Source: Desulfurivibrionaceae bacterium
GTDB taxonomy: Bacteria > Desulfobacterota > Desulfobulbia > Desulfobulbales > Desulfurivibrionaceae
Reading direction: 5' to 3'
Assembly (NCBI GenBank): GCA_041675265.1
Contig: JBAYUD010000005.1
Location: 11,222-75,221 of the forward strand
Length of the DNA stretch: 64,000 nucleotides
The position numbers were made by a program, and so were the translations under genes. This document shows positions 1,138 to 57,156 of this stretch, in pieces (position 1 is the stretch's first letter; every line of letters begins with the position of its first letter). The notes under the pieces are model-generated. The model had not been told where the DNA came from, did no database searches, and worked only from the letters and a program-made list of their open reading frames with translations.

Positions 1138-2185
1138 TCTGAATCCGGAAGACTTCAGCTGTCCCCTGCCCATCATGGAATATGAGACCATCCAACTGGC
1201 GCACGGCAGCGGCGGGCGGCTCTCCGCCGAGCTTGTCAGCCGGTTCTTTCTGCCGCGCTTCGGCAATGAAACCCTGAACCGGCTGGAGGATCAGGCGGTT
1301 GTCGATTTTCCCCAAGGCCGCTTGGCCCTGACCACCGATTCCTTTGTGGTGGATCCCCTTTTCTTTCCCGGCGGCGATATCGGCGATCTGGCGATCAACG
1401 GGACGGTGAACGATGTCTGCATGGGCGGGGCCACGCCGCTCTATCTGGCCGCCGCCTTTATCATCGAGGAGGGTCTGCCCATGGCCACCCTGCACCGCGT
1501 TCTGCTCTCCATGGAAAAGGCGGCAAAAACCGCCGGGGTGCGGATCGTGACCGGGGACACCAAGGTGGTCAACCGGGGCTGCTGCGACAAGCTCTTCATC
1601 ACCACCACCGGGGTGGGGCTGGTGCCGGCAGGGGTGAACATCTCCGCGGCCAATCTCGAGCCGGGGGACAAGGTCATCCTTTCCGGCACCATTGCCGATC
1701 ACGGCATGGCGATCCTGACCTCTCGGGAAGGGCTTTCCTTTGCCTCACGGGTGCACAGCGATACGGCGGCTCTGAATGGCCTGGTGGACCGGATGCTGCA
1801 CGCCTCTCCCGCCATCCACGCCATGCGCGATCCCACCCGTGGGGGCCTTGCCACTACGCTCAACGAGTTTGCCGCATCCTCCGGGGTCGGCATCATGTTG
1901 GAGGAGGCAGCCATTCCGGTGCGGCCCGAGGTGCGGGGCGCCTGCGAGGTGCTGGGCATCGACCCGATGTACGTCGCCAACGAGGGCAAGCTGGTGGCCG
2001 TTGTTCCGGCGGAGGTTGCCGGCACGGTGGTGGACGCCATGCGAAGCCATCCCCAGGGGCGGGAGGCCGCGATTATCGGCGAGGTTGTTGCAGGCAACCG
2101 GGGGCTGGTGGCCATGCGTACAGCCTTAGGGGCGCAAAGGATTGTGGATATGCCGGTGGGCGAACAGCTGCCGAGAATATGCTGA
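1130..2185 (+). CDS. hypE: Hydrogenase maturation protein HypE
   Basis: [32 protein letters not shown] and terminal PRIC. Start placed at ATG 1130, overlapping the hypD 3' end. Confidence 0.96.
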
Positions 2186-28924: not shown

Positions 28925-29859
28925 GATCTTGGTTGTTCCTGCTCGTGCTCCACGTGCTGCCAGTAACGATCCACCCCGGCCTGGATCTCCGCGATCATTT
29001 CCCGGTTTTCCCTCGGGGCGAAGAGATGGCGGAAGCGGCCCTGCGCCTTGAGGTATTCCCGCACCTCCAGCCTGGGATGCGGGATCTTGGTGTGGATTAC
29101 CGTGCCGTCCACATACTCCTTGAGGGGCCAGATCCCGGTTTGCACGGCGAGCTTGCCGATCTCCACGGTGGCGCTCGGCTCATAGTCCCAGCCGGTGGGG
29201 CAGGGGGCCAGGGCCAGGATCAAGCGGGGGCCGGTCAAGGATCTGGCCCGTTCGATTTTTCGGGCCAGATCCAGGGGCTCGGCCGCAACCACGGTGGCCA
29301 CGTAGCTCGGCTGGTGCGCGGCCCAGATGGTAAAGAGATCCTTTTTGTAGCCGGGGTACCCCTTGGGCCCCTTGCTGGTGGCGGTGTGGGCCGCGTGCGG
29401 CGTGGCCGGGGAAAATTGCTGGCCGGTGTTGCCGTACCCCTCGTTGTCGTAGCAGAGGTAGAGGAAATTAAGATTGCGGTCCATGGCCCCGGAGGTGGCG
29501 GAAAGCCCCATGCCGTAGGCGGAGCCGTCGCCGGTAAGCACCACCACCGCAAGGTCTTCCGCCTCGCTGATGCGTCCCTTTTTTTTCAGGATATCGAGCC
29601 CGTCCCGCACCCCCTGTGCCCCGGCCGGGGCGCAGGCCATGGCGGTGTAGAGCCAGGAGCCGCGAAAGGGGGTATAGGGGTAGACGGAGAGCAGGGTCAG
29701 GCAGCTGGCCCCATTGACGATGACGCATTTTTCACCCATGAGGTCGTAAACCTGATGCAGGGTGGCAAGACCGCCGCAGCCCGCGCACATGGGGGTTCCG
29801 GCGCCGAGGATATGGCGGGAGGGCAGATCCCTGAGGTGGTGGTAGTGTGTCTCGCTCAT
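28921..29859 (-). CDS. 2-oxoacid:ferredoxin oxidoreductase beta subunit (TPP-binding)
   Basis: CAGCG, GDGSAYGMG, YDNEGYGNTG, APCPTGW. Confidence 0.92.
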   Translation of the reverse strand: MSETHYHHLRDLPSRHILGAGTPMCAGCGGLATLHQVYDLMGEKCVIVNGASCLTLLSVYPYTPFRGSWLYTAMACAPAGAQGVRDGLDILKKKGRISEAEDLAVVVLTGDGSAYGMGLSATSGAMDRNLNFLYLCYDNEGYGNTGQQFSPATPHAAHTATSKGPKGYPGYKKDLFTIWAAHQPSYVATVVAAEPLDLARKIERARSLTGPRLILALAPCPTGWDYEPSATVEIGKLAVQTGIWPLKEYVDGTVIHTKIPHPRLEVREYLKAQGRFRHLFAPRENREMIAEIQAGVDRYWQHVEHEQEQPRS

Positions 29860-31103
29860 GCGCCGCCTCCCTGCTTGGTGTCGGCGGCCCGGGCCACGCT
29901 CTGCATTGTGCGGACGCCGCGCAGCTCTTCTTCGGTGTAGAGCAACCGGGGCAAAGGGTTGACGCCTTCGTTCACTGCCTGTTGCACCACCTTGTGGATC
30001 TCGAAAAATTCCTCGCTGCTGATATCCCTGCCGCCCAACCCTCCGACAAAGGAGGCGAGTACGGGCGGCGCCTCCGCCATCCCGTACAGGGCGGAGGCCA
30101 GCTCCCCATGCAGGATGCCGCCCTTGCCCGGGGAAAGATTCTGGTCGATCACGGCAACCGCTTTTTTGCCTGCCAACGCCTCACGCAAGGGTGCGGCCGG
30201 GAAGGGCCGCACCAGCCGGGGCCGCACCAGCCCCACCTTTTTGCCCGCCTCGCGGAGCCGGTCCACCGCCTCCTTGGCTTTGGTGGCAAAGGAGCCGATC
30301 ATCACCAAGACGATCTCGGCATCCTCGCTTTTGTAACACTCCAGAGCGGTGTAGCTCCTGCCGAACAATCCGGCAAACTCTTGCCCCAATTCCTCGTAGA
30401 CCGCAAGCCCTTGCAGGGAGGCGAGATGCGCCTGGTAACGGAAATAGGAGTAGGCCGACCCCTCCAGCACCGCCACCCCTTCGCTCAGGGGTTCGCCCCC
30501 CCGGAAACGGATCGAGCCCGGGTTGAAGGGGGGGAGGAACCGATCCACCTCCGCCTGGCTGGGAATCAGCACCGGCTCCCGGGTAAAGGAGAGGTAGAAG
30601 CCATCCAGGTTGACCAGTACCGGCAAGCGCACCGTGGGGTGCTCGGCCAGCCGGTAGGCGATGAGCAGGTTGTCCAGCACCTCCTGGCAGGTGGCGCAGT
30701 GGAGCTGGAGAAAGCCGCAATCCCGCATGGCCAGGACATCGTTGTGGTCCGGCTCCAGGGTGATGGGCGAGGAGAGACCCCGGGAGACATTGACCATTAC
30801 CAGGGGCACCCGCCAACCTGCCACGGTGTAGAGCATCTCCGTGGCATAGAGCAGGCCCTGGCTCGAGGTGGCGGTGAAGACCCGCACCCCGGTAACCGCC
30901 GCGGCGCCCGCGGCGGTGAGCATGGAGTGCTCGGACTCCAGGGTGACCATGCGGCATTCCAATTCCCGGCCTTCGATCCAGCTCCCGAGGGTTTCGATGA
31001 TCTCGGTCTGGGGGGTGATGGGAAAGGCGGGCAGATAGTCGATTCTGGCCAGCCGCGCCCCCCAGGCCGCAGCGCCGTTGCCGGTGAGCAATTTCCGGGT
31101 CAT
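29856..31103 (-). CDS. 2-oxoacid:ferredoxin oxidoreductase alpha subunit
   Basis: FPITPQTEIIE, ESEHS, ATSSQGL; ATG 31103 overlaps the upstream stop. Confidence 0.92.
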   Translation of the reverse strand: MTRKLLTGNGAAAWGARLARIDYLPAFPITPQTEIIETLGSWIEGRELECRMVTLESEHSMLTAAGAAAVTGVRVFTATSSQGLLYATEMLYTVAGWRVPLVMVNVSRGLSSPITLEPDHNDVLAMRDCGFLQLHCATCQEVLDNLLIAYRLAEHPTVRLPVLVNLDGFYLSFTREPVLIPSQAEVDRFLPPFNPGSIRFRGGEPLSEGVAVLEGSAYSYFRYQAHLASLQGLAVYEELGQEFAGLFGRSYTALECYKSEDAEIVLVMIGSFATKAKEAVDRLREAGKKVGLVRPRLVRPFPAAPLREALAGKKAVAVIDQNLSPGKGGILHGELASALYGMAEAPPVLASFVGGLGGRDISSEEFFEIHKVVQQAVNEGVNPLPRLLYTEEELRGVRTMQSVARAADTKQGGGA

Positions 31104-32017
31104 GGCGTTTCCCCCTGGGCCGCGGCTTCCTCTTCGGGCACGGCACTGATGGCATGGGCAGGGCACTGGGCCAGACAGATCAGGCATCCCTTGCAGTGAC
31201 CATAATCGATGCGCGGCCTGCGCTCGTCATCCACCTGGATGGCGCCCTCCGGGCAGAAGGTGGAGCAGATCCACCAGCAGCGGTTGCAGCGGGATCCATC
31301 GATTATCGGCCTTTCCGTCCGCCAAAGGCCGGTTTGCGACAGCTCGCTGGTGGCTGCGGCATGGATGGCCGGGGCGCTTAAAAGTGGCTCCTCGCAGGCA
31401 AGGGTCAGCCAGCCGGGCGGCGTGTACTCCTCGGCGGAAATCGGGCCTCCTTCGTGTACCGCGCCGCGATGCGCGGCCAGGGAAGCATAGGCCGTGCGGG
31501 CCACGCCGAGATTGATTGCCACCAGCTCCGGACCCAGGGGGGCAAGCTCTTCTTGCACCGCCTCGGCGAGAAGGTCGATGTTCAGCTCGCTGATCAGGGC
31601 CGCGGCCCCACCGGCGCAGGCAGCGCCGCGGAAGCGCAGTTCGTTTTCAGGCAAACCAGGCAGGGTGAAGACCGGCCCTTGCAGGTTGAGGCGTTCCCGC
31701 CAGAGGGATGGTTTTTCGTGGCTGTGGATGAGAAAGGCTGTTTGCGGCTGAGCGCCGGAAAGCACGCCTGCGCCGGGCATGGCCAAGAGATGGTCGTCGG
31801 CGACGATGATGAGGTCGGGGCGGCTGATGACGCCGCGTTCGAGGATGGGCGTCCGGCCGGCGCGGACATAGGCAAAGATCGGCGCGCCCCGCCGTTCCGC
31901 GCCGTAGCGCGGGGCATCCTGCACCTCAAAGCCGGCCAGGAAAAAGACACTGCCGAGGATGCGGCCGGCGGTTTTCATGCCCTGGCCGCCGCGGCCGTGC
32001 AAGCGGATGCGGTACAT
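31100..32017 (-). CDS. 2-oxoacid:ferredoxin oxidoreductase fused gamma-delta subunit
   Basis: HGRGGQG, YGAERRGAP, then a 2[4Fe-4S] ferredoxin (CNRCWWICSTFCP; CKGCLICLAQCP). Confidence 0.92.
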   Translation of the reverse strand: MYRIRLHGRGGQGMKTAGRILGSVFFLAGFEVQDAPRYGAERRGAPIFAYVRAGRTPILERGVISRPDLIIVADDHLLAMPGAGVLSGAQPQTAFLIHSHEKPSLWRERLNLQGPVFTLPGLPENELRFRGAACAGGAAALISELNIDLLAEAVQEELAPLGPELVAINLGVARTAYASLAAHRGAVHEGGPISAEEYTPPGWLTLACEEPLLSAPAIHAAATSELSQTGLWRTERPIIDGSRCNRCWWICSTFCPEGAIQVDDERRPRIDYGHCKGCLICLAQCPAHAISAVPEEEAAAQGETP

Positions 32018-32032
32018 GGCTCCTCCTTTCCT

Positions 32033-33145
32033 TTAGAAAATCCCCCACCGCTTATAGGTCATGGCCCGTTCCACCCGGCGGGTGGCCAGATTGATCGCGG
32101 CCTGCCGGGGCATGATCGCATCCTGCCTGGCCTCCACCAGCACCTGCTGGGTGTTGTCGCGGATTTTTTCGGCAATGGCGCGGAAGGCCTCGGTCTGGGT
32201 GGAGCCGTGGTACTCCATGGCCGCGCAGATCACCCCGCCGGCATTGGCGATGAAATCCGGCAGACAGAGGACGCCCCGGTCATGGAGATAGTGCTCCGCG
32301 CCGAGGGTTAGGGGGATATTGGCGCCCTGGGCCACCAGCCTGGTTTTCAGCCGGTGGATATTGTTTTCATGCAGCACATCGGGACGGGCTGCCGGTACCC
32401 AGATCTCGCATTCCAGATCGATGATCGCGTCCCGGTCCGCCTTGCAGCCCCCGGGATAATCCAGGACCGAGCCGCCCTGGTTCTTGATGCGGATCAGCTC
32501 CTCAATCTTGATCCCGGCCGGGTCATGGAGGGTGCCCCTTGAATCGGAGGCCCCCACCAGGCTCACCCCCCGCTCGGCGAGAAAGCGGGCGGTATGCTTG
32601 CCCACCGCGCCGAACCCCTGCACCACCAAGCGGGCGCCGGTGAGGGAGAAATCGCAAAAAGGAATGGCCGTCTCCACGGCCTGGCACAGTCCCCAGCCGG
32701 TGGCGCCGAGCCGGTCCAGGGGGATGCCGCCCACCTCGCAGGGCAAGCCGACCGAACGGCCGATCTCGTCCTTGACCCAGGCCATGCACTCTTCGTTGGT
32801 GCCCATGTCCGGCCCGAAGATGTAGTCCTCCTCCCGGCGCAAGGCAAAGGCAAAGGCGCGGATCAACCGTTCCTTGTCGGCCCGGTCCATCTTCGGGTCG
32901 CCCTGGAGCACGGATTTGCCGCCGCCGTGCGGAAGGCCCGCGGCCGCGTTCTTCATCGTCATGGCCCGGGCCAGACGGGCGCATTCACCGGTGCTGACGT
33001 CCTCGGCCATGCGCAAGCCGCCGATGGCGGGGCCGCAGGCCACGTTGTCCACCACCAGCACGCCCTTCAGGCCGAGTTGCGGCTGGGAGACATGGATCAC
33101 CTTGGCCGGGCCCAGTACATCCCCGAGAGCAAAAATATCCTCCAT
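32033..33145 (-). CDS. Glu/Leu/Phe/Val dehydrogenase
   Basis: IGGLRM, GGGKSV, GPDMGT, QGFGAVG, PDFIANAGGV. Confidence 0.93.
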   Translation of the reverse strand: MEDIFALGDVLGPAKVIHVSQPQLGLKGVLVVDNVACGPAIGGLRMAEDVSTGECARLARAMTMKNAAAGLPHGGGKSVLQGDPKMDRADKERLIRAFAFALRREEDYIFGPDMGTNEECMAWVKDEIGRSVGLPCEVGGIPLDRLGATGWGLCQAVETAIPFCDFSLTGARLVVQGFGAVGKHTARFLAERGVSLVGASDSRGTLHDPAGIKIEELIRIKNQGGSVLDYPGGCKADRDAIIDLECEIWVPAARPDVLHENNIHRLKTRLVAQGANIPLTLGAEHYLHDRGVLCLPDFIANAGGVICAAMEYHGSTQTEAFRAIAEKIRDNTQQVLVEARQDAIMPRQAAINLATRRVERAMTYKRWGIF

Positions 33146-42264: not shown

Positions 42265-42363
42265 CAGGGTGTTGAAAAACTCGTTTTTCGATGCCCTGCG
42301 TGCGGTCCAGGGATGGATCGTGGTTGAAAAAAGCCAGGACGGCTTTTTTCAACATCCTGCTAG
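42261..42363. mobile_element. MITE/REP-like palindromic element bounded by CTAG
   Basis: CTAGCAGGGTGTTGAAAAA ... TTTTTCAACATCCTGCTAG, a 19-bp inverted repeat with 1 mismatch; internal 13-bp perfect hairpin GTTGAAAAAAGCC/GGCTTTTTTCAAC. Confidence 0.7.
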
Positions 42364-43235
42364 AGAGTCCCGCCCCCGCTCTTTTTCTTAAAAACCCGGA
42401 CCTCCACATCGACATCCAGCCGCAGCCGTTCCAGGGCCGCCACCTTACCCTTTGTCTCCCGATCGATGTTCCAGTAATAGGGCGTCATGGCCAGCAGGTC
42501 CATGATCGTCCGGGCGCCTTCAAGTTCGAGCGGGTAGGTGATCCGCGACACCGTGGCCGGGGAAAAAAGTTCCTTGGCCTTTCCGGTGATCGAGGGCGCT
42601 TCATGCTCCCTGGTGATGGGATAGATGATCTCCCGCAACCCGTTGAGGTGTTTCGGGCCGGGGCTTACGAAGACCAGGCTGCCGTTTTCCTTGAGGATCC
42701 GGGCGAATTCCAGGATGTTTGCCGGGGAAAAGACATTGAGCACGATGTCCAGGGAGGAATCCAAAAAGGGCAGATCGTTGATGCTGGCCACGAACCAGGC
42801 CATGCTCCGGTCCCGCTGGGTGGCCTGGCGCACCGCGAACTTGGACACATCGACGCCGTGGTACTCGATGGGGAGGCGCGGATCGCGGCCCTGGGACAGA
42901 CCCTCCTTGAGGCGCTGGAGATAAAAGCCTTCGCCGCAACCGGCATCCAGAACGCTGCAATCGGTGCTCCGCGCCAGTCCCGAAAGCACGGCGCGGATGG
43001 CCTCGTTGATCCCGTCCGAGATCGGGTTATAATATCCCAGGTCCAGGAACCGTCTCCGGCTCAGGACCATGTCCGGGTCGTCCCCCGGCTCCTTGGAATG
43101 TTTTTTGTGGGCAAGCACGAGGTTGACGTACCCCTGGCGGGCGGCGTCGAAGCTGTGCATCGCGGCGCATCGGTAGCCGTCCGCGGTTGCAAGCAACGGT
43201 TTCCGGCACACGGGGCATTGGAGAATGGATGTCAT
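42360..43235 (-). CDS. RlmA-like rRNA methyltransferase
   Basis: N-terminal CPVC..C..HSFD Zn finger, GYVNL, LDAGCGEGFY, LAMTPYYW. Confidence 0.85.
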   Translation of the reverse strand: MTSILQCPVCRKPLLATADGYRCAAMHSFDAARQGYVNLVLAHKKHSKEPGDDPDMVLSRRRFLDLGYYNPISDGINEAIRAVLSGLARSTDCSVLDAGCGEGFYLQRLKEGLSQGRDPRLPIEYHGVDVSKFAVRQATQRDRSMAWFVASINDLPFLDSSLDIVLNVFSPANILEFARILKENGSLVFVSPGPKHLNGLREIIYPITREHEAPSITGKAKELFSPATVSRITYPLELEGARTIMDLLAMTPYYWNIDRETKGKVAALERLRLDVDVEVRVFKKKSGGGTL

Positions 43236-43414
43236 GTGCGCATCCTTGGCATGGGGCCTGATCTCATGTGCGCTTGATGAGTCGGGTTTCAGATGTATTG
43301 GGTGGCGGGGGCAATGCCGCCTATCCGGTGTTCGATCTCCGCCAAGGGAAAAAGCGGGAAAACGGATCGTTCTTGGCTGGACCGCTTTTCAGGGCCAGGC
43401 CCCGCCTCGCGTAT

Positions 43415-43756
43415 TCAGGCGAGCTTTAACAGTGGCTTGATTTTGGCTTTGATTTCAGCCAGCTCGGCCACGGTGGCCGTTCCTTTGTGTTCGGCCTGGC
43501 GGGCTTGCCAGTCGAGGCTTTTGACCTGATCGGCCAAGGCGGCGCCGGTCGCACCGGCGCCGGAGAGCACGACCTCAAAAGGGTAGCCCTTGATCTGATT
43601 GGTCACCGGCACACAGACCGCCAGCCCGGCACGGCTGTTATATGCCTTCGGGCTGAGCACCACGGCCGGACGCCGGCCTGCCTGTTCGTGGCCGCTCTGC
43701 GGCGTGAAATTCAGCCAGACGATATCCCCTTCGTCGGGAATATATGGCGCAGCCAT
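43415..43756 (-). CDS. mazF: MazF/PemK endoribonuclease toxin
   Basis: YIPDEGDIVWLNFTPQSGHEQAGRRPAVVLSP, DQVKSLDW. Confidence 0.95.
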   Translation of the reverse strand: MAAPYIPDEGDIVWLNFTPQSGHEQAGRRPAVVLSPKAYNSRAGLAVCVPVTNQIKGYPFEVVLSGAGATGAALADQVKSLDWQARQAEHKGTATVAELAEIKAKIKPLLKLA

Positions 43757-43998
43757 CAGAGGATTTCCCGGCCTTGGGGTATGCCGAAATCTGCTTCCGA
43801 ATGGCGATTCTCCGGGGTGATTTCCGCCAGGAGATCTTCCAGGTCGTACTCGGGTGCTGCCGGCTCAATGATGACGCGCCCGTGGTCGGCACGGACCTGC
43901 ACCGGCTGATTCAACGAAAGATGCGCCGATTCCATGATCGCGGCCGGGATGCGCACCGCCGGGCTGTTGCCCCATTTTTTGACAAGTTGAACCGCCAT
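43756..43998 (-). CDS. mazE: MazE (AbrB-fold) antitoxin
   Basis: KKWGNSPAVRIP, YDLEDLLAEITPENRH; 1-bp overlap with mazF. Confidence 0.95.
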   Translation of the reverse strand: MAVQLVKKWGNSPAVRIPAAIMESAHLSLNQPVQVRADHGRVIIEPAAPEYDLEDLLAEITPENRHSEADFGIPQGREIL

Positions 43999-44041: not shown

Positions 44042-44137
44042 AGGAAGTATAGCCAGTGTACCGGCTGGTTTCAACTTGTTTCTCTCCGGCATGCGGGGAA
44101 ACTCCTCGCCTGCGAAACAGCGATTTCCTGATGGCCA

Positions 44138-44482
44138 CTATTTTTTCCGCAGCCATTGGTTGTAGAAATCAGGATGAAAGCCGATCACAAACTCGTCGCC
44201 GGCCCGCAAGGCAGGGGCGCGAAGATTGCCGCTCGGGCCCATCACCTGCTTGAGGATTTCCTCCTTCCCGTCCTGTCTCGGGTGCAAGTGCGAAAACGTT
44301 TTTCCCTTGGCAACGGTGATTTTCGCCGCGTTCCGCAATACCTCCCACGCCGCCGCGCTGTCCATCCGCACCGTGCGGGCGTCAACCACCTCGCCAATTA
44401 CTACCTTTTCCTGCTCGAGAACCTCCCGGGCATTGTTGCAGGAGGTTCAGCCCTTACGGAGATAGGCCCAATCGATTTTCAT
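44138..44482 (-). CDS. ArsC/glutaredoxin-like protein with UxxC motif (probable selenoprotein, TGA at 44447-44449)
   Basis: ATG AAA ATC GAT TGG GCC TAT CTC CGT AAG GGC TGA ACC TCC TGC reads in frame into the 83-aa track ORF (GNLRAPAL..VIGF); GAGGA RBS upstream. Confidence 0.85.
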
Positions 44483-44687
44483 CGTATTCCTCGTTTTTTG
44501 CCATGGATTGATCTTGTTGCGGCGCTCTTCCTTCCTGAAGATCCACCAAAACAGCAGCGGATGGCAAGGCAAATCCGTGCGCAAGACAAGAAATATCCCC
44601 CCGGAGCATTGCAATTCCCGCCGGAGTCGGGTTTCATAGGGGGAATCATCCTCACCCTGAAAAAATAAACTTCCATAGCCATTATAT

Positions 44688-46268
44688 ATGTCGCCCATAT
44701 CGAAAAAGATCATCCGCCCCAGCCTTTGGCACACCGCGGTCACGCTCTGCCTTTTGCCCCTGCTCCTCCTCTCTGTTGCCGTAGAGGCAATGGCTGTTCC
44801 GGACACCAGCCGCTACGACGTGCTCTATATCTGGGACGCCGACCTGCGCAACCTCCAGGATTACAAGGAGGAGCTGGAGGCCCAGCTCGGCGCCGAGGTC
44901 GGCAAGGACTTGCACCTTATCCAGCGCGGCGACCAGTACGGGATCATCTATGACTGCAACACCACCGCCCTTGCCGCGGCAAAGCTGGCCATCCGTCACA
45001 GCGTCATCCTCGACAAGGTCGAGCTGGGCGATGCCAGGGCCATCAAGGATGAAGACTACCACGAACTCTACAATGTCTGTTACGGCCACGGTCCGAACCT
45101 CGCGGCCTTGACCGAACAGTACCAGGCAATCTACCGCAACCTCGGCGCCGAGGTCGGCAAGGATCTCTTTATCGAAAAGAGCGCGGACGGCAAATACACC
45201 CTGATCTACAGAAGACAGACGGATAAGCAATCGACCATGGGTGTGGCCCGTCTCCACGCCAAACTGCTGGCCAAGTCAGGCATCTCCGCCTCCATCACCC
45301 GTGAGGAAAACAACGAGGTGGTTTTCGGCGAGTCAAGCCTGCTTGACCACGAGGAAAGGGATCCGAAGGGCGCCCCTGCGCAAGCCGCGCCGGAATCCGC
45401 CTTGGGCAAAAAGCAAAAAACAGCAGCCGAGCCGGTTCCGCTGCTGAGCGGAGACAAGAAGAAAAGCGTTGGTAAAACCGTCGCCGCCGGCAGCACCCTG
45501 GAAAAAAAGGTGAAGGAGTATCTCGATGGGTTGCGGGGCAAGGGGCTGGTCGACAAGGATGAGAGAACCGGTTGGCTGGCCATCGATCTGACCAAGGGGG
45601 AAACCATTGTCGACATCAACGTCGACAGCCCCTACCAGGCAGCGAGCATGATCAAGCCGTTCATCGCCCTGGCCTATTTCCACCAGCGCCAAGAGGGAAA
45701 ACAGACTTACACCTCCACGGCCCGGAGCAAAATGGAGGCGATGATTCAACGCAGCGACAACGGCGCCACCAACTGGGTCTTAAAGCAGGTCGGCGGCCCC
45801 AAGGCGGCGCAGAAGATTTTGCGCAAGCATTACGGCCAGCTGCTCCGCGAAACCAGCATTGTCGAATACATCCCCGGCGGCGGGAAAACCTACCGGAACA
45901 AGGCCTCGGCCAAGGACTACGGCCGGTTCCTGGTGGCGCTCTGGCGCAAGGAACTCCCCCACGACGATGAGCTTCGCCGGTTGATGGCCCTGCCCGGACG
46001 CGACCGGATCTACTGCGGCACTTCGATCCCCCAGGGCACCCTGGTCTACAACAAGACCGGCACCACCGCGAAACTCTGCGGGGATATGGGCATCCTGGCC
46101 CCCAAGGCACAGAACGGCCGCCGCTATCCCTATGTGGTGGTGGGGATCATTGAAAAACAAAGAGCCGCCGGCAACTACGGGCACTGGGCAATGGCCAGGG
46201 GCAACGTGATTCGCCAGGTTTCTGACATGATTTATCAGGAGATGAAGGCGAATTATAATCTGCTGTGA
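44688..46268 (+). CDS. Exported class A beta-lactamase-like serine hydrolase with a long N-terminal extension
   Basis: Signal peptide; SxxK (ASMIK), SDN (RSDNG) and KTG (NKTGT) motifs in order. Confidence 0.85.
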   Translation: MSPISKKIIRPSLWHTAVTLCLLPLLLLSVAVEAMAVPDTSRYDVLYIWDADLRNLQDYKEELEAQLGAEVGKDLHLIQRGDQYGIIYDCNTTALAAAKLAIRHSVILDKVELGDARAIKDEDYHELYNVCYGHGPNLAALTEQYQAIYRNLGAEVGKDLFIEKSADGKYTLIYRRQTDKQSTMGVARLHAKLLAKSGISASITREENNEVVFGESSLLDHEERDPKGAPAQAAPESALGKKQKTAAEPVPLLSGDKKKSVGKTVAAGSTLEKKVKEYLDGLRGKGLVDKDERTGWLAIDLTKGETIVDINVDSPYQAASMIKPFIALAYFHQRQEGKQTYTSTARSKMEAMIQRSDNGATNWVLKQVGGPKAAQKILRKHYGQLLRETSIVEYIPGGGKTYRNKASAKDYGRFLVALWRKELPHDDELRRLMALPGRDRIYCGTSIPQGTLVYNKTGTTAKLCGDMGILAPKAQNGRRYPYVVVGIIEKQRAAGNYGHWAMARGNVIRQVSDMIYQEMKANYNLL

Positions 46269-46549: not shown

Positions 46550-46616
46550 GCTTGACAGGGAGGCTTTCCCAGATTAAAAGTTGCGCTCAGATCAATTTCC
46601 TGCTTACATATTTTAT

Positions 46617-46922
46617 ATGACTTTTGATCCGACCGAAAAGATAGACAACGAAAAAGCGCTTGCGCTGATCAGGGAAGCTGCCACCAAGAATAACCTGATT
46701 TATGGTGGGCACGTGAAACAGCGCATGCGCGAACGACGCTTCACGATTCAGGATATTCTTTTCATTCTTCAGCATGGCGAATTAAGCGGGAAAGAGTACA
46801 GGGAAGAATACGAGAATTGGGTCTATTCGATCAGGGGCGTTGATCTTGAAGGGGAAGAAGGGCGAGTTGTGACCGCCATCGTCTCCGAATATTCGGTACA
46901 GATCATCACCGTCACAAGCTGA
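46617..46922 (+). CDS. DUF4258-like protein (putative RNase toxin)
   Basis: HVKQRMRERRFTIQDIL..G..IITV pattern; directly upstream of an MqsA-like gene. Confidence 0.75.
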   Translation: MTFDPTEKIDNEKALALIREAATKNNLIYGGHVKQRMRERRFTIQDILFILQHGELSGKEYREEYENWVYSIRGVDLEGEEGRVVTAIVSEYSVQIITVTS

Positions 46923-46964
46923 TTGTGCACCGGGGAAAATGTTTGCCGGAGGAGGAAATTGAAC

Positions 46965-47492
46965 ATGAAAAAATGCGTTGAGTGTGGTGGAAAAATCACC
47001 TCGATCAAGAATAAGCCGTACACGTATGATGAATGTGGGCTAGACGTAATTATCCATGGATTAACTCAATTCAAATGCGAGAAGTGCGGCGAGGTGTATG
47101 TTTCTCTTCCCAATATTGAGAAACTCCATCGGGTGATCGGCGGCTTTATTTGTTCTCAAAGAAAATCTCTTCTTACCTCGGCGGAGATCAAATTTTTGCG
47201 CAAGGATTTACATCTCAAATCCAAGGAGCTTGCAGCCGCCCTGGGTATCAGGCCGGAAACCATTTCCCGGTGGGAAAATGATAAAGAGCCTATCGGAGAA
47301 ACCCAAGACCGGCTTTTGCGGTCAATCTACATGAATTATGCCTCTGAATCGGCAAACAGTGTCATTTGCCACGGTGTTGTCCAGATGTTTTCCGGGCTTC
47401 CCCGTGAACGCAGCAAGATCAAGTCTCCGAAGAAAATCGAATTAAACCCCACCGACTGGCTCGGGGCTGGAATGGAGTTGTGCGGAGCCTGA
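46965..47492 (+). CDS. MqsA-like antitoxin (YgiT-type Zn finger + XRE HTH)
   Basis: CVECGG..CEKCGE, LLTSAEIKFLRK..ELAAALG..TISRWEN; GGAGG RBS. Confidence 0.88.
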   Translation: MKKCVECGGKITSIKNKPYTYDECGLDVIIHGLTQFKCEKCGEVYVSLPNIEKLHRVIGGFICSQRKSLLTSAEIKFLRKDLHLKSKELAAALGIRPETISRWENDKEPIGETQDRLLRSIYMNYASESANSVICHGVVQMFSGLPRERSKIKSPKKIELNPTDWLGAGMELCGA

Positions 47493-50641: not shown

Positions 50642-52408
50642 TTATGCCACCGCCTGTTCGACGATGGCGTCGGCCAATTGGACTTGGGTAATTTTGGCGT
50701 CGTGCAACCGTTCTTTGAGGGTGTCGCAGAGGGCCAGCAGTTCATCGACTTTGGCGACGATGCGGTGTTGTTCGGCTAGTGGGGGCAGTGCTATTAACAA
50801 CATACGAATTTGATCTCTCGAAACATTTTTCATCGAACTACTCGTACCACCGGCAACTCTTGAATAATACTCACGGGAGGAAGAACTCCCATTCGCCAAA
50901 TTAACAAATTGAGTATTGCTGCTCCGTGAAAATACAAATCTGATAATTTTATCACTCATCATAAGACGAGGAGGAGTTTCTTTCGGGACTATAACAGCAC
51001 GTGCTACAAGTTCTGATGTATTAGCTCTCGAAATCAAAAAATCATCAGGAAAAACTTCAAATTCAGGTCTCGGTCTTAAATTAGCCGGTAATGCTTTGTT
51101 TTCATCTGGGTTATATTGGCCCCACGAAACTGCGCTTACTTTGAGAACACCCCAATCATTATCTTTTCTTGGGGTGGGCTCACAATTGGGGCTCCATCCA
51201 GCTTCAGAACGTAAAGCGAGATCATCCAGCCTTACCCACCCCCAACCTACCGGCAAATCAAAAGGCTTTTCATCCTCACTGATTTTCGGCAAAGTTTTTT
51301 GCTTTTTGATTTTGCCTTCTTTAATGAGTTTTGCTTTTTCTTTGGCGATTTTTTCCAGCAGGGTGCTGGCGGGTTCGTCGTTGGGGTTTTGGGGGACGAG
51401 TTTGCCCATGACGGCGAGTTGGAGGATGGTTTGTTTGAGTTGGTCGATGGACTCTTCGGTGGTGAACAGGGTGTCGAAGTGACCCACGATGCGTTGCCAG
51501 CTTACAGCAAACTCGGCTGGATCGGCGACGGTGGTGAGGGTGGCAAGCAGGGTTTCCACCAGGGTTTGGTGGGTATCGTTACTGTCGGCTTGTTGCTGTT
51601 CCAGCTTGTCGCAGAGGGCCATCAGTTCATCGACTTTGGCGACGATGCGGTGTTGTTCGGCTTTTGAAGTAATTGGGAACAAAGCAAGCCGGGCTTTTTC
51701 AGTGCCCATGCGTGGAAGATTCATTCCATGAGTTGAATCATTAGCATACCGAATAAAGCAGGGGGACTTCATTACAAGCCGGAGGTACTGCGAGGCTATA
51801 TGAGCATAGCCTTTGAGAGGGACCATTTCAGTTGTGCAAATCCCGTTTTCATCAGCCACTATTACTTTGTCGAGATATGGCCGCAATTTCCCGTAGATCA
51901 CGTCCCCTTTAGAAAATACATTCTTTGAACTTCTAAACTGTCTATCAGCAACTCTTACTTTTTGTAAAAGCTTGGAAGTATCTTTTTCGACGTCCTCTAA
52001 TTCAAGAATCCAGGTGTCCTCACTAACGGAACCAGGCTCAGCTTTTTCTGAAAATCCATAATCAGTAACGTTTCCAAGCCGTGTCCACCCCCACCCTTTC
52101 GGCAATTCATATGGCTTTTCATCCTCGCTGATTTCCGGCAGGGACGTATCTTTTTTGATTTTGCCTTCCTTAATGAGCCGAGCTTTTTCTTTGGCGATTT
52201 TTTCCAACAATACGCTGGCCGGTTCGTCTTTTGGGTCTTGCGGCACCAGTTTGCCTCGCACGGCCAATTCCAAAATCAACTCCCGCAACTTCTTAATGCC
52301 ATGCGGGCTTTGCCCGTTCGACCCTCTCCCGCGCCCCCTCCCGCCATTGGCCTTGGGAATTTCAGCACCAGTCCAGGTGGCAATATGTTCGGTAATCAAA
52401 TCCATCAT
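50642..52408 (-). CDS. hsdS: Type I RM specificity subunit (EcoAI/type IB-like, two TRDs)
   Basis: Duplicated conserved regions (IL.LAV.GKLVPQ.P.DEPAS.LLEKI; EQHRIVAKVDEL.ALCD) around two AT-rich TRDs. Confidence 0.95.
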   Translation of the reverse strand: MMDLITEHIATWTGAEIPKANGGRGRGRGSNGQSPHGIKKLRELILELAVRGKLVPQDPKDEPASVLLEKIAKEKARLIKEGKIKKDTSLPEISEDEKPYELPKGWGWTRLGNVTDYGFSEKAEPGSVSEDTWILELEDVEKDTSKLLQKVRVADRQFRSSKNVFSKGDVIYGKLRPYLDKVIVADENGICTTEMVPLKGYAHIASQYLRLVMKSPCFIRYANDSTHGMNLPRMGTEKARLALFPITSKAEQHRIVAKVDELMALCDKLEQQQADSNDTHQTLVETLLATLTTVADPAEFAVSWQRIVGHFDTLFTTEESIDQLKQTILQLAVMGKLVPQNPNDEPASTLLEKIAKEKAKLIKEGKIKKQKTLPKISEDEKPFDLPVGWGWVRLDDLALRSEAGWSPNCEPTPRKDNDWGVLKVSAVSWGQYNPDENKALPANLRPRPEFEVFPDDFLISRANTSELVARAVIVPKETPPRLMMSDKIIRFVFSRSSNTQFVNLANGSSSSREYYSRVAGGTSSSMKNVSRDQIRMLLIALPPLAEQHRIVAKVDELLALCDTLKERLHDAKITQVQLADAIVEQAVA

Positions 52409-52477
52409 GACGGGGTCACCTTGTTTCCATTTGGAGCCAGCAAATTCACGGTCAAACGGATCAGGAGATCCTCCCTT

Positions 52478-52897
52478 AAATGCAGAATTAAAAATGGCAA
52501 ATGCAAAATTATTGTTTCCCCAGGTTGTTCTTTGTATTCTTGATGATTGTAACGAAGATCGCTGTCAACTCTCTTGATTCCTGAAGCAAATCCGCAAGGT
52601 TGCTCTCGGTCATGATCCCACCTTCGACCAGCAATTCAAGCCAGTATGTTGTTTCATCGAGTTCCTTGAGACAATCACCCATCTTAGCCACAAACTCTGC
52701 TTTGGATCTGCCACGCGACGCCTCCCTGTAGTTTGCGCCGACCGATGTACCGGAACGTAGCACTTGTTTCCCTAATACTCTCGCTTCAGTCGACTTTGGC
52801 AATGTCGAATACATGGCTAAAATCCGCAGGGCAAATTTCTTAGTCCGATCTTTCAGGTCTTTCTCGTTTTGCATTCTAAATTCTACTTTTTGCCTTT
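52478..52897. repeat. Inverted 7-nt-periodic arrays flanking the four-helix-bundle gene
   Basis: Plus strand 52478-52512: AAATGCA GAATTAA AAATGGC AAATGCA AAATTAT. Minus strand 52897-52863: AAAGGCA AAAAGTA GAATTTA GAATGCA AAACGAG. Confidence 0.65.
52509..52874 (-). CDS. Four-helix-bundle protein (23S rRNA IVP / bAvd-like family)
   Basis: LKDRTKKFALRI, QVLRSGTSVGANYREA, SKAEFVAK, ELDETTYWLELL. Confidence 0.92.
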   Translation of the reverse strand: MQNEKDLKDRTKKFALRILAMYSTLPKSTEARVLGKQVLRSGTSVGANYREASRGRSKAEFVAKMGDCLKELDETTYWLELLVEGGIMTESNLADLLQESRELTAIFVTIIKNTKNNLGKQ

Positions 52898-53339
52898 ATG
52901 CAGCTTGCTCCATCTCGGAGAGTCCCTTTTCTGCCAGGCGCCTCTCGTTGGTGGTATAGCCTTGGATCAGGTGGTCTTTCAGGACCGAAGTCGCCCAAAT
53001 GCGAAATTGGGTGCCGCGTTGCGACTTGACCCGGTAGCCGACGGAAATAATGACGTCAAGATTATAGAAGGCGACCGGTTTATCTGAATTTGCAATATGC
53101 ATTTTTTGCATATTGCTTTCCTCGGCCAACTCTCCTTCCTTGAAAACATTGCGGAGATGACGGGAGATGACGGACTGATCTCTTTGAAAAAGCTCAACCA
53201 TCTGGGTCTGGCTCAACCAGACGGTTTCATCAGCCAGATGCACGTCGAGTCCGGCCCGGCCGTCAGCGGACTTATAGATAATAATCTCACCCTGGGCGGG
53301 ATGACCTTGGTTGTCCATGCTCACTTCTTCACGTTTCAT
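52896..53339 (-). pseudogene. RhuM-family protein, N-terminal part only (Fic/DOC half missing)
   Basis: ETVWLSQTQMVELF, YNLDVIISVGYRVKS.RGTQFRIWAT; stops at EMEQAA exactly at the heptamer array. A C-terminal-like remnant (REDLLIRLTVNLLA) lies at 52405-52476. Confidence 0.7.
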
Positions 53340-54811
53340 TTGCCCTTCCCCAGACAGCCCAGGAGCTCCTTCTTCAAGGCCTCGCGGGTCGCCGCCACCT
53401 CGGCCTGCTGCCTGGCATACTTGGCCAGCAACACTTCGGGATCGTGGATGATCTGTTCGCCGACATGGGGGTTCTTGATATCCAGGTTGTAGCTGCGGGC
53501 TTTGATATCATCAATCGTGACCTTCCAGGCCTGTTCGGTTTCGACCCTGGCCGCAAAACCATCTGCCTCGCTGCCCCACCAGTCGATCTCCGGCTGGAAC
53601 TCTTCAAAGCGCATGGGCTTGGTCTTGTTATAGCTGACAACGCCTTCCGGGTAGGGGTGCTCGTAATACCAGATCTGCTCGGTGGGCTGGCCTTTGGTGA
53701 AAAAGAGCAAGTTGGTTTTGATGCCGGTGTAGGGGTTGAAGACGCCGTTGGGCAACCGGACAATGGTGTGCAGGTTGCACTCGGCCAGCAGTTTTTCCTT
53801 GAGGCGGGTCTTCATACCCTCGCCAAAGAAAAAGCCATCGGGCAGAACCACGGCGGCGCGGCCCTGATCTTTGAGCAGGTGGATGATCAGGGTCATGAAG
53901 AGGTCGGCGGTTTCTCGGGTGCGGAAGGTGGCCGGGAAGTTGTTTTCGATGCCGTCTTCTTCCATGCCGCCAAAGGGCGGGTTGGTGACGATGACCTTGA
54001 CCCGGTCTTTATTGGTGTAGTCCCGCAGGGGGCGGCTCAGGGTGTTGTCGTGCTTGATGTTGGTCGGGGTGTCGATGCCATGCAGAATCATGTTGGTAAC
54101 GCAGAGCATATGGGGCATGGACTTTTTCTCGACCCCGTTGATCGTGGCTTGCAGGGTCTCTTCATCCGCTGCCGATTTTACATAGTTTTTGCGCTTGTGC
54201 TCGATGGTGCAGGACAAAAAGCCGCCGGTGCCGCAGGCTGGGTCGAGCACGGTTTCGTCTAGTGTGGGGTTGACCCGATCGACGATAAATCTGGTGACGG
54301 CCCGTGGGGTGTAGAACTCCCCGGCATTGCCGGCGGATTGCAGGTCTTTAAGAATCTGCTCGTAAATGGAGCCGAAGGTATGGCGATCTTCCTTGGTGTT
54401 GAAGTTGATCTCGCAGATTTTATTGATCACCTGACGCATCAGGGTGCCGGATTTCATGTAGTTGTAGGCGTCTTCAAAAACGTCTTTCACCACCAGCGCC
54501 CGTTTGCCGCCCGGCCCCAGGGTATTGAGTTTGTTTTTCAGGGTCGGGAAGAGCTGGAGATTAACAAAATCGGACAACTCGTCACCGGTCATCCCTTCCG
54601 AATCCTTGGCCCAGGACCGCCAGCGGAGATGAGCCGGCAGCGGGGATTTGTAGTCATCTTCGAGAAGTTCCAGCTCGGCTTCGCGGTCGTCAAAGATTTT
54701 CAGAAAAAACATCCAGACCAACTGACTGATGCGCTGGGCATCGCCATCGACACCGACATCCTTGCGCATGATGTCCTGGATGGATTTGATGATGCCGGAA
54801 ACGTTACTCAT
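53336..54811 (-). CDS. hsdM: Type I RM m6A methyltransferase subunit
   Basis: GEFYTPR, LDPACGTGGFL, NPPF motif IV, ATFRTRETADLF. Confidence 0.97.
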   Translation of the reverse strand: MSNVSGIIKSIQDIMRKDVGVDGDAQRISQLVWMFFLKIFDDREAELELLEDDYKSPLPAHLRWRSWAKDSEGMTGDELSDFVNLQLFPTLKNKLNTLGPGGKRALVVKDVFEDAYNYMKSGTLMRQVINKICEINFNTKEDRHTFGSIYEQILKDLQSAGNAGEFYTPRAVTRFIVDRVNPTLDETVLDPACGTGGFLSCTIEHKRKNYVKSAADEETLQATINGVEKKSMPHMLCVTNMILHGIDTPTNIKHDNTLSRPLRDYTNKDRVKVIVTNPPFGGMEEDGIENNFPATFRTRETADLFMTLIIHLLKDQGRAAVVLPDGFFFGEGMKTRLKEKLLAECNLHTIVRLPNGVFNPYTGIKTNLLFFTKGQPTEQIWYYEHPYPEGVVSYNKTKPMRFEEFQPEIDWWGSEADGFAARVETEQAWKVTIDDIKARSYNLDIKNPHVGEQIIHDPEVLLAKYARQQAEVAATREALKKELLGCLGKGK

Positions 54812-57156
54812 GCGGATTGCTCCTGATTAAACAACTCTTTCTCCAATTCCTGAATGGCGTTTTCGTACTCTGTTTTCCCGCCAAAGACCTGATTGATAAT
54901 CTCCATGGGGGTGCCCATATCGCTGAAGGGCTGGAGCTTGAGGATCTTGGCGTTTTCAAGGGAACGGATACCTTCATTGGCGTAGTTATCGAGCAAGGCG
55001 GTGAGTACTGCCCGGGCCTGCTCGCCGTATTTGGTAAAGTAGTTGCGTTTTTTGACATTATTGGCCCGCTCTTTACGGGTAAGCGGGGGCTGATCATAGG
55101 CGATATGACAGATAAGGTCAAAGTCTCCGTAGTCACGACCCACTTCCTCGGCAAGATTATCAAGCACGATGCCGTGTTCTTCCAGGAGTTCGAGAATTAT
55201 CTGTTTCTTTTGCGCGCTGTTCCATCTGCGGAGGAAATCATCAAGGGTCGCAAACTCTGACTTGATCTGCTTGCGGGAAAAATCCCGGTACGATTCGGTA
55301 ATCAGGGTGCCGTCCGGGCCGATGTATTCGATCCGCTCGGCGATGATTTTGGCCGAAACCCCGCTGATGTAAACTTTTTTGCTCTCACAAGTTTCCGGTG
55401 GATCGATTACAGGATCGTCATCATATGGTTTCGGGTCGGGCGGAACAGGGGGTTCATCCGGGCCGGGCTCAAAGATAACCACCGGCTCACCGTCAAAATC
55501 AGGATCTCGGAACAGCTCGGTAGCCTTCTTAAAATCCATGATGGTGAAGTAGTACTTGTTTTGCTCTTCCTCGATCCGGGTGCCGCGCCCGATGATCTGC
55601 TTGAACATGGTCATGGAGTTGATATTTTTATCCAAGACAATGACCTTGCAGGTTTTGGCATCCACCCCGGTGGACAAGAGCTCCGAGGTTGTGGCGATAA
55701 CCGGGAACTTGCTTTCCGGATCGATAAAGTTGTCGAGTTCGGCTTTGCCCTCGACACTGTCGCCGGTGATGCGCATCACATATTTAGGGTTATCGATGGC
55801 GATTTGCCCGGCAGCATTCACGATGGCGCGGCGCATGCGTTCGGCGTGGTCGATATCCTCACAGAAAATAATGGTTTTCGCGAAGGGATCGGTGGCATTG
55901 AGAAGTTGCATGACCCGTCTGGCCACCAGCCTTGTCCGCTGATTGAGAACGAGGATGCGGTCCATATCTTTCTGGTTATAGGTCCGACTTTCGATTTCCT
56001 GACCAAGGTCATCAAGCATTCCCGGAGGTGGTGTCCAGCCTTCGATATCTTTATCGATATCGATACGCACCACCTTATAGGGGGCGAGAAAACCATCCTC
56101 GATGCCCTGCTTTAAGCTGTAAGTATAAACAGGCTCACCAAAATAGGTGAGGTTGGAAACATATTTTGTTTCCTTGGGGGTGGCTGTCATGCCGAGTTGG
56201 ATGGCGCTTGAAAAATAATCGAGGATTTCGCGCCAGGCCGAATCGTCGGCAGCGCTGCCGCGATGACACTCGTCAATGACGATCATGTCGAAAAAGTCTG
56301 GAGAGACGTTTTTGAAGATTTTGTCCTCTTCGTCTGTCCCGGTTATGGCCTGATAGAGAGCGAGATGGATTTCGTAGGACGGGTCGATCTTGCGGTTTTT
56401 GACCTTGGCCATGACCGAGCCGAAGGGCTTGAAATCGTTGACCAGGGTTTGGTCGGCAAGGATATTGCGATCAACCAGAAAGAGAACGCGCTTGACGGCC
56501 TTTGCCTTCCAGAGTCGCCAGATAATTTGAAAGGTGGTGTAAGTCTTGCCGGTGCCGGTGGCCATGACCAGCAGAATGCGCTTTTGGTTGTTGGCCACCG
56601 CTTCAACCACTCGGTTAATGGCCTCGGTCTGATAGTAGCGGGGCTCTTTGCCGGAACTGTCCGTGTGATAGGGCTGCAGGACCAGCTCATCGGAAGTATC
56701 ATTGATGCCGCGAAATGATTTATAGCGTTGCCAAAGTATTTCGGGTGGAGGAAACGCTTCGAGCGGAAATTCCGTTTCAATGTCTTCGCCGATCTTTATT
56801 GCTTCTTTATTATGCGAGGCAAAGGCATCACCGTTAGAACTGAAGGCGCTGGGAACTTTGAGTATATCTGCATAGCCCAATGCTTGCTGCATACCGTCGC
56901 TCACGGTGTGGTTGTTGTCCTTGGCTTCGACTACCGCGACGGGGACACCGGGCTCCCAAGAAAGGATGTAATCTGCGAATTTTTTCTTCTTCTTGTTCCG
57001 GGACGACATATTGCCCCGCACAATAACAGGGCCTGGGGTGAGAGTAACCTCGCGCCGAATCTGTTTTAATTGATCCCAGCCAGCATCTTTAAGGGCAGGC
57101 GTGATGAACAAATCGCAGATATCGATTTCGCTGAGTTCTTTTTTGTCCATTTGCAA
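54808..57156 (-). CDS. hsdR: Type I RM restriction subunit (EcoEI/EcoAI-like)
   Basis: AVVEAK nuclease, RYYQ, MATGTGKT, DECHRG, QIIGRGTR, EcoEI-type C-terminus. Confidence 0.97.
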   Translation of the reverse strand: MQMDKKELSEIDICDLFITPALKDAGWDQLKQIRREVTLTPGPVIVRGNMSSRNKKKKKFADYILSWEPGVPVAVVEAKDNNHTVSDGMQQALGYADILKVPSAFSSNGDAFASHNKEAIKIGEDIETEFPLEAFPPPEILWQRYKSFRGINDTSDELVLQPYHTDSSGKEPRYYQTEAINRVVEAVANNQKRILLVMATGTGKTYTTFQIIWRLWKAKAVKRVLFLVDRNILADQTLVNDFKPFGSVMAKVKNRKIDPSYEIHLALYQAITGTDEEDKIFKNVSPDFFDMIVIDECHRGSAADDSAWREILDYFSSAIQLGMTATPKETKYVSNLTYFGEPVYTYSLKQGIEDGFLAPYKVVRIDIDKDIEGWTPPPGMLDDLGQEIESRTYNQKDMDRILVLNQRTRLVARRVMQLLNATDPFAKTIIFCEDIDHAERMRRAIVNAAGQIAIDNPKYVMRITGDSVEGKAELDNFIDPESKFPVIATTSELLSTGVDAKTCKVIVLDKNINSMTMFKQIIGRGTRIEEEQNKYYFTIMDFKKATELFRDPDFDGEPVVIFEPGPDEPPVPPDPKPYDDDPVIDPPETCESKKVYISGVSAKIIAERIEYIGPDGTLITESYRDFSRKQIKSEFATLDDFLRRWNSAQKKQIILELLEEHGIVLDNLAEEVGRDYGDFDLICHIAYDQPPLTRKERANNVKKRNYFTKYGEQARAVLTALLDNYANEGIRSLENAKILKLQPFSDMGTPMEIINQVFGGKTEYENAIQELEKELFNQEQSA

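Follow-up and report, generated by a model that had tools for sequence, protein, structure and literature searches.

Organization of the locus

Translation of the minus strand of the window, by which we mean the whole stretch of 64,000 nucleotides analyzed here, revealed one frame of 114 sense codons plus a closing TAG at 44482..44138. The frame begins with ATG at 44482-44480, ends with TAG at 44140-44138, and is translated as MKIDWAYLRKG-stop-TSCNNAREVLEQ...LRKK-stop. Its sole internal stop is the TGA of codon 12 (44449-44447), beyond which the frame runs on as MKIDWAYLRKG-TGA-TSCNNAREVLEQEKVV...GPSGNLRAP...FYNQWLRKK-stop. As pointed out in a preliminary description of this DNA, the list of open reading frames cuts the frame in two, namely 44447..44806 and 44138..44389, both on the minus strand. 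The same description had regarded the ATG as backed by a ribosome-binding site, and a Shine-Dalgarno-like GAGGA was indeed located at 44488..44492 (minus strand), 5 nt before the ATG, with GGAGG or GAGGA equivalents preceding the aligned ATG in the inspected homologous loci.

Read with selenocysteine (Sec, U) at codon 12, the frame at 44138..44482 (minus strand) would constitute a complete gene for an ArsC/Spx-related UxxC selenoprotein of the family NF041106, full-length orthologues of which (111-115 aa) were found in 80+ genomes. The in-frame TGA (44447..44449, minus strand) would accordingly start a U-T-S-C redox motif whose partner residue, Cys15, is encoded by the TGC at 44440-44438 (minus strand). 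Further downstream lies a GPSGNLRAP motif (residues 82-90; 44213..44239, minus strand), which was made up of invariant alignment columns.

Conservation of the in-frame TGA codon

A genome scan with one genome per GTDB species identified 538 genomes with a relative, from which the best 80 loci were fetched, and 83 homologous loci sharing 52-82% identity with the window protein were compared in total. These loci spanned Desulfurivibrionaceae (up to 82% identity), Desulfuromonadales, Geobacteraceae, Geopsychrobacteraceae, Desulfobulbaceae, and SAR324, and they included cultured carriers, namely Hydrosulfovibrio ferrireducens CB1MN, Desulfuromusa kysingii DSM 7343, and Malonomonas rubra DSM 5091 (loci L009, L058, and L083). 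Codon 12 was TGA in all 83 loci, and in every one of the 83 an ATG was positioned exactly 11 codons before it. The N-terminal 11 residues (MKIDWAYLRKG) were near-invariant as protein, with a synonymous normalised entropy of 0.6-1.0, i.e., with free synonymous sites. Such conservation of the N-terminal peptide at the protein level alone indicated that translation runs across the TGA to give a single polypeptide.

When 1.84 billion cluster representatives were searched exhaustively with HMMER, more distant members were recovered, many of which carried a true CxxC at the site aligned with the TGA, for example MIIDWAYFRKGCISC (RKGCISC) in P0158, FMRNSCATC in P0145, HRNGCETC in P0143, and HRKNCETC in P0164. 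The earlier proposal that the TGA occupies the first position of a CxxC-type motif was thus substantiated, and its expectation of either Cys or TGA in homologues agreed with the occurrence of TGA throughout the 83 nearby loci and of Cys in the distant relatives. Retention of TGA in one clade with Cys in others is the classical signature of a selenoprotein, and the TGA pattern observed here is far beyond chance. The TGA was also without variant in four independent public assemblies, comprising one from a landfill, two groundwater metagenomes, and one aquifer metatranscriptome, in which strain variants were scattered elsewhere in the gene. The Sec form is kept in 80+ species of Desulfobulbales, Desulfuromonadales, and related groups, with no swap to Cys among close orthologues; judging from these sequences, this retention suggests that Sec is functionally required.

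A single in-frame stop has the look of a fresh nonsense mutation, by which a Cys (TGC/TGT) or Trp (TGG) codon would have been changed to TGA and the gene would be dead, and Trp does appear, superficially, at this site in database homologues. Against such a nonsense pseudogene, TGA recurs at the same codon in all 83 loci, including those of only 52% identity, the DNA of the Trp entries likewise reads TGA, the family-invariant residues are all intact in the window copy, and both the N-terminal peptide and the SECIS hairpin described below are under selection. We therefore regard a pseudogene at this locus as exceedingly improbable and treat the frame hereafter as a Sec-encoding gene.

Several individual copies showed peculiarities of their own. 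In a Geopsychrobacter MAG (around nt 3057 of locus L046), an extra in-frame TAG stands in place of the GAG of invariant Glu20 within the SECIS stem (NAQ-stop-FLE); this copy, the only broken one among the 83, represents either a real pseudogene or a sequencing error. Two paralogous copies occur in each of the MAGs VMSS01 (L012 and L014) and JAOUDB01 (L074 and L078), all of them with TGA, the members of one such pair being 75% and 61% identical to the window protein. One metatranscriptome contig (1539 nt, run X6), which matches 44126-44485, has the 3' portion of the gene at one terminus and, separated from it by 1276 nt of unrelated sequence, the 5' portion, ending 3 nt upstream of the ATG, at the opposite terminus. 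Assembly chimerism, a circular or tandem arrangement, or the joining of two variants could account for this contig.

Truncated and Trp-bearing database entries

Among 5.8 billion proteins searched, 369 relatives were identified. The closest of these (70-84% identity) were database entries of 83-88 aa that start after the TGA, and they are short because gene callers begin past this codon. Some 30 more distant full-length entries read Trp at the Sec position (...LRKGWxSC...; e.g., P0020 and P0039-P0071, and at the loci L001:288-623, L002:158-502, and L003:910-1248). When the DNA of three Trp entries was inspected, the codon proved to be TGA in all three, and the table-11 translation disagreed with the database protein. 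The W is thus an artefact of gene calling with code 4/25 on short metagenome contigs, consistent with which some of the Trp entries bear spurious C-terminal extensions. Trp in homologues was considered as a refutation of the Sec reading and was rejected, since TGA was present in the DNA of every case checked; the W-bearing entries could nonetheless mislead any homologue test based on Cys, Sec, and Trp. One entry, P0086, already carries the NCBI name 'ArsC family (seleno)protein'.

That pipelines picked code 4/25 for about 30 short metagenome contigs with the gene could be taken as a sign that UGA specifies a standard amino acid through reassignment or readthrough, either Trp (code 4/25) or Cys/Gly by near-cognate decoding. 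However, TGA ends many confidently identified genes of the window (including hypE, metF, topoisomerase III, hsdR, and hsdM), indicating the standard code, and homologues without TGA have Cys, and in no case Trp, at the aligned site. In addition, a reassigned codon needs no dedicated covarying hairpin at SECIS distance, and the probability of this explanation appeared to be negligible.

Alternatively, the TGA could be a true stop, for instance after loss of the Sec trait, in which case translation from an internal start, e.g., GTG 44389, would give only an N-terminally truncated protein. Gene callers do predict products of 75-88 aa for the window and its closest relatives (P0001-P0019), and the Sec machinery is not visible in the window. 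Such a product, however, would be devoid of β1, the UxxC motif, and α1, and on the structural model would form no functional thioredoxin fold. Furthermore, codons 1-11 and 13-31 are conserved as protein, and the internal start is not conserved, being GTG in the window and MV, ML, or MSC at differing positions in the others. Lineages that lose Sec typically convert it to Cys or drop the gene (PMC1794560). On this evidence, true termination at codon 12 is very unlikely, and decoding of the TGA as Sec is preferred.

The SECIS hairpin downstream of the TGA

It had been proposed that GCCCGGGAGGTTCTCGAGC (= GCCCGGGAGGUUCUCGAGC) downstream of the TGA can fold into a SECIS-like hairpin. This sequence is present at 44431-44413, with AGGUU beginning 23 nt past the UGA, and the hairpin was borne out as a SECIS candidate by its behavior as a conserved and covarying element. 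The bacterial SECIS hairpin thus delineated on the basis of covariation, synonymous constraint, and folding, GCCCGGGA-GGU-UCUCGAGC (44413..44431, minus strand), comprises nt 19-37 counted from the U of UGA. Its stem consists of 5+2 pairs beneath an apical GGU loop at 44423-44421, and an optional U18-A38 pair lengthens it to 44432-44412.

The 48 nt from the UGA onward were aligned without gaps for 80 distinct sequences. Standard pairs between nt 19-26 and 30-37 were found in 89% of the cells, and compensatory double changes were observed at four of the eight pairs (19-37, 21-35, 23-33, and 26-30), such as UA to GC or CG at 21-35, AU to GC at 23-33, and AU to CG or GC at 26-30. The covariation score of the hairpin was 0.158 against a shuffle mean of 0.097; it was matched by none of 500 shuffles and lay above all slid controls. 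The first loop nucleotide, G27, was invariant in this alignment. In the hairpin codons, Glu20 was encoded by GAG in 77/77 sequences, Leu22 by CTT in 80/82, and Glu23 by GAG in 64/64, and the mean normalised synonymous entropy was 0.29 as opposed to 0.84 in the rest of the gene (Mann-Whitney p = 0.004). This suppression of synonymous variation indicated that selection acts on the RNA besides the protein.

In the window copy, the substitution Q19R (CAR to CGG) is offset in the stem by a change of the Leu codon from CTT to CTC, so that the two changes turn pair 23-33 from A-U into G-C. The window hairpin also has a C.A mismatch at pair 21-35, where 9 of the 80 sequences are without a standard pair; a close metatranscriptome strain variant regains U-A at this position. 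The strict 19-37 stem of the window was calculated at -7.1 kcal/mol, compared with a family median of -7.4, and reached -8.0 with the U18-A38 pair. The bSECIS consensus describes a loop of 3-9 nt with G within the first two positions followed by G or U, a stem of 4-16 bp, a distance of 16-37 nt from the UGA to the loop, and an MFE of at most -7.5 (PMC13188914). With its spacing of 23 nt, the window hairpin conforms to this consensus, although its energy does so with the U18-A38 pair, the strict value of -7.1 being borderline against -7.5. A search of the 64-kb window with Rfam at gathering thresholds detected tRNA-Val alone and no SECIS family.

The competing stem noted earlier, GAACCUCC/GGAGGUUC, is likewise present as an 8-bp stem within 44419..44448 (minus strand), in which 44448-44441 pairs with 44426-44419 and the GA of the UGA is included. 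For naked RNA, this stem gave the MFE fold (-17.9 kcal/mol), which is limited to the window and a few close relatives. As a conserved element it was rejected: no covariation was detected, 499 of 500 shuffles scored equal or better, and its middle pairs were open in 46-58 of the 80 sequences. In the window and these few relatives, the codons used (ACC UCC ... GAG GUU) generate the competing stem as a side effect. Once the 12-15 nt after the UGA were masked, mimicking a ribosome that holds the UGA in its A site, the SECIS hairpin became the MFE structure. A possible lower SECIS stem, pairing nt 8-12 with 42-46, reached just 70% pairing and is disrupted in the window.

Family assignment and predicted fold

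With U read as C, the window protein matched NCBIfam NF041106 ('ArsC_rel_Se_1', ArsC family (seleno)protein) at 120.6 bits (E = 4e-35; curated cutoff 85 bits), residues 3-107 aligning with positions 1-107 of the 107 in the profile. Comparison with Pfam gave a weak, sub-threshold Glutaredoxin match. ArsC (PF03960) was matched neither by the window protein (threshold E ≤ 1) nor by any of 36 relatives (E ≤ 0.1). TIGR01617 aligned over the full length with E = 0.014. The absence of PF03960 from all members tested indicated that 'ArsC' is a remote-superfamily label, which does not in itself point to arsenate reductase activity.

P0020, a homologue of full length sharing 60% identity with the window protein, was modelled with AF2 from a 36-sequence alignment (pLDDT 94.4, pTM 0.86). 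The elements of the model are arranged in the order β1 (5-8), α1 (13-24), β2, α2, a β-hairpin, and α3, followed by the C-terminal elements β (91-94), β (97-100), and α (104-112). The protein is accordingly predicted to adopt a thioredoxin-like fold, with Sec residue 12 at the N-terminus of α1. In a Foldseek search against the PDB, Spx (1z3e, 3ihq, 6gho, and 3l78), YffB (1rw1), and ArsC-related proteins came out on top for this model. The top nine matches were Spx and YffB (probability 0.98-1.0, TM ~0.5, E ~1e-3, identity 13-16%), below which NrdH and glutaredoxins were ranked, and a profile search of PDB sequences weakly gave the same set (1rw1, E = 0.019; 3l78, E = 0.084). The profile alignment placed the Sec of U-x-S-C on the first Cys of Spx C-T-S-C. 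GPSGNLRAP aligned to the R-P (cis-Pro) loop that precedes strand β3 of the thioredoxin fold, its invariant LRAP facing the KRP/RRP loop (MIKRP in YffB and LLRRP in Spx). On the model, membership in the ArsC/Spx/YffB superfamily by fold appears remote but consistent. The original description of the product as an ArsC-related, glutaredoxin-like protein of thioredoxin fold was therefore upheld by the NF041106 assignment, the weak Glutaredoxin match, and the fold matches to Spx/YffB/ArsC and then NrdH/Grx.

These similarities also allow for a real selenoprotein that serves not as a general oxidoreductase but as an Spx-like redox regulator binding RNA polymerase, or as an arsenate/metalloid reductase. 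Spx entries (1z3e, 3l78, and 6gho) are the top structural and profile matches, U-T-S-C-x-x-A aligns with Spx C-T-S-C-R-K-A, and the family, named ArsC-related, was put in CDD cd03032 in the GOS analysis. On the other hand, the similarity amounts to TM ~0.5 and 13-16% identity, the insertion between β2 and β3 holds a β-hairpin in the P0020 model, and there is no Pfam ArsC match. Among Arg residues, R88 is the sole invariant one and R36 is nearly invariant, and no counterpart of the R773 ArsC Arg triad was recognized in the invariant positions. Moreover, no ars, regulator, or partner gene is conserved beside the gene, the most frequent neighbor reaching 9 of 80 loci. Spx is a regulator of Firmicutes. 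Such a specialized role is therefore unlikely, and a general redox function of the selenoprotein is favored.

Selenocysteine machinery and genomic context

NCBIfam and Pfam scans of approximately 50 ORFs of the 64-kb window detected no selA, selB, or selD, and no tRNA-Sec (selC) was found by ARAGORN in the window or in 60 related loci. The HypE ORF was considered as SelD and rejected, its score of 42 bits against a cutoff of 125 reflecting PurM-superfamily similarity only. A scan of the window for a second TGA-interrupted UxxC/CxxU ORF gave out-of-frame noise only. Desulfobulbales and Desulfuromonadales are documented users of Sec (PMC1794560). From the intact, selected UGA and SECIS, the retention of TGA across strains, and the Sec use of related orders, we infer that the organism possesses the Sec trait, and the recognized gene marks it as a likely Sec user.

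The gene is followed by mazEF and preceded by a divergent gene for a β-lactamase-fold protein. The toxin-antitoxin pair directly downstream comprises mazE (43756-43998, minus strand) and mazF (43415-43756, minus strand). In close relatives, the downstream neighbor is instead an RlmA-like methyltransferase gene, and mazEF thus looks like an insertion in the window. No neighbor recurred in more than 9 of the 80 loci, and with no conserved neighbor the genomic context gives no functional inference. A terminator scan detected none after the gene, and the sole sigma70-like promoter (44074-44046, minus strand) is situated past the 3' end of the gene, being probably that of mazE.

Other features of the window were recorded in passing. 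Two long ORFs overlap on opposite strands (42291-43277, plus; 42360-43235, minus); the gene call on the identical JGI contig L084 indicates that the real gene is the minus-strand one, encoding an RlmA-type zinc-ribbon methyltransferase, and the 328-aa plus-strand ORF, with no family match, is probably spurious. Genes for a DUF4258 protein and then an MqsA-family antitoxin (CxxCG zinc-finger + HTH) at 46581-47492 (plus strand) probably form a second toxin-antitoxin pair. A complete type I restriction-modification system occupies 50642-57156 (minus strand), with hsdR of the EcoAI/FtnUII family at 54808-57156, hsdM at 53336-54811, and hsdS at 50642-52408, small ORFs lying between hsdM and hsdS. 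An apparent 2-oxoacid catabolic operon at 27161-33145 (minus strand) consists of genes for a Glu/Leu-type amino-acid dehydrogenase (32033-33145), a 2-oxoacid:ferredoxin oxidoreductase with fused gamma/delta, alpha, and beta subunits (28921-32017), and a fatty-acid CoA ligase family protein (27161-28924). The hydrogenase maturation genes hypD and hypE are located at 43-2185 (plus strand), and an unusually long pentapeptide-repeat protein (673 aa) with several repeat blocks is encoded at 13307-15328 (minus strand). At the window edge, 62910-63989 (minus strand) encodes a CofD-like protein of the 'GAK system' (TIGR04357, 478 bits).

Proposed decoding mechanism and function

Taken together, we conclude with high confidence that the locus is a genuine Sec-encoding gene for a 114-residue thioredoxin-fold protein (NF041106) whose residue 12 is Sec. 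With a ribosome at UGA-12, the first 12-15 nt downstream would be inside the mRNA channel, where the stem overlapping the UGA could not form. The 3' arm, thus freed, would fold into the conserved hairpin at +19..+37, and the G-first apical loop GGU would recruit SelB-GTP-Sec-tRNA(Sec). By analogy with the established mechanism of bacterial Sec insertion, Sec would be inserted without termination, yielding a product that would bear the U12-T-S-C15 motif at the N-terminus of helix α1.

Since U12 occupies the canonical redox position of the thioredoxin fold, the protein most likely cycles between the selenol/thiol and selenenylsulfide states. From motif and fold, the most likely function is that of a small oxidoreductase or redox sensor in which U12 and C15 carry out selenol/thiol-selenenylsulfide chemistry. 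Both the actual insertion of Sec in the organism and this redox chemistry would follow from the decoding signals, the motif, and the fold described above. A more specific role as a Sec-containing Spx counterpart of Desulfobacterota, which would be a selenol-based sensor of redox or sulfur/metalloid stress acting on the transcription machinery or another specific partner, seems a distinctly long shot. The Spx-like U-T-S-C-x-x-A, the invariant KGK and GPSGNLRAP surfaces, and the absence of an operon partner are compatible with such a standalone sensor.

As to practical significance, standard gene callers shorten the gene to 75-88 aa or mistranslate Sec as Trp, and recognizing the TGA as Sec restores a complete redox protein. 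The scientific addition is nevertheless small: the residual value lies in annotation hygiene and in the covariation-backed SECIS model for the family, which is the addition of the present work, and the biochemical role of the family poses a modest question.

Comparison with known systems

Like SECIS elements of the E. coli fdhF type and the bSECIS consensus, the hairpin of the window lies in the coding sequence directly 3' of the UGA and has a small apical loop starting with G-G/U at 23 nt from the UGA. Unlike the fdhF SECIS, it has a short stem of 7-8 bp, a loop of 3 nt (or 5 nt, A-GGU-U), and no clear bulged U, and its sequence is unrelated to that of fdhF.

At the protein level, the predicted product shares with Spx/MgsR (TIGR01617, cd03032) and YffB (1rw1) the thioredoxin-like fold. 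A CxxC-type motif starts helix α1 in Spx as in the window protein (CTSC and UTSC, respectively), and a conserved R-x-P/RP loop ahead of β3 is common to Spx, YffB, and the window protein. It differs from Spx and YffB in its low similarity (13-16% identity, TM ~0.5), in having Sec for the first Cys, and in its occurrence in other taxa. According to the P0020 model, the inserted subdomain of the window family also holds a β-hairpin, whereas the equivalent subdomain of Spx and ArsC is all-helical. With the glutaredoxin-coupled ArsC of the R773 type (PF03960, TIGR00014), which also has a UxxS form, the family shares the superfamily and a catalytic Cys/Sec at the N-terminus of α1. It differs from R773-type ArsC in the absence of a PF03960 match, in its UxxC motif instead of UxxS or a single Cys, and in its loci, which are not ars operons.

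The reported occurrence of ArsC-like UxxC selenoproteins, on which the preliminary description had drawn, is confirmed by three publications. For Desulfotalea psychrophila and Desulfuromonas acetoxidans, Zhang et al. (2006) listed an 'ArsC-like' selenoprotein that is homologous to thiol-based oxidoreductases (PMC1794560). Zhang and Gladyshev (2008) listed 'Arsenate reductase 2, cd03032, UxxC' with 42 Sec and 238 Cys sequences in the GOS data (PMC2398784), and the prokaryotic selenoproteome catalogue of 2026 lists NF041106 as 'Arsenate reductase-like protein, UxxC' (PMC13188914). The family has thus been catalogued since 2006-2008, a curated NCBI model exists, and the gene of the window is an ordinary, already known orthologue. 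It agrees with the NF041106 family of the 2006, 2008, and 2026 catalogues in its UxxC motif, its distribution in Desulfobulbales and Desulfuromonadales, and its Sec/Cys alternation, and nothing substantive sets it apart, the window copy being distinguished by Q19R (CGG), the change of CTT to CTC, and one C.A mismatch.
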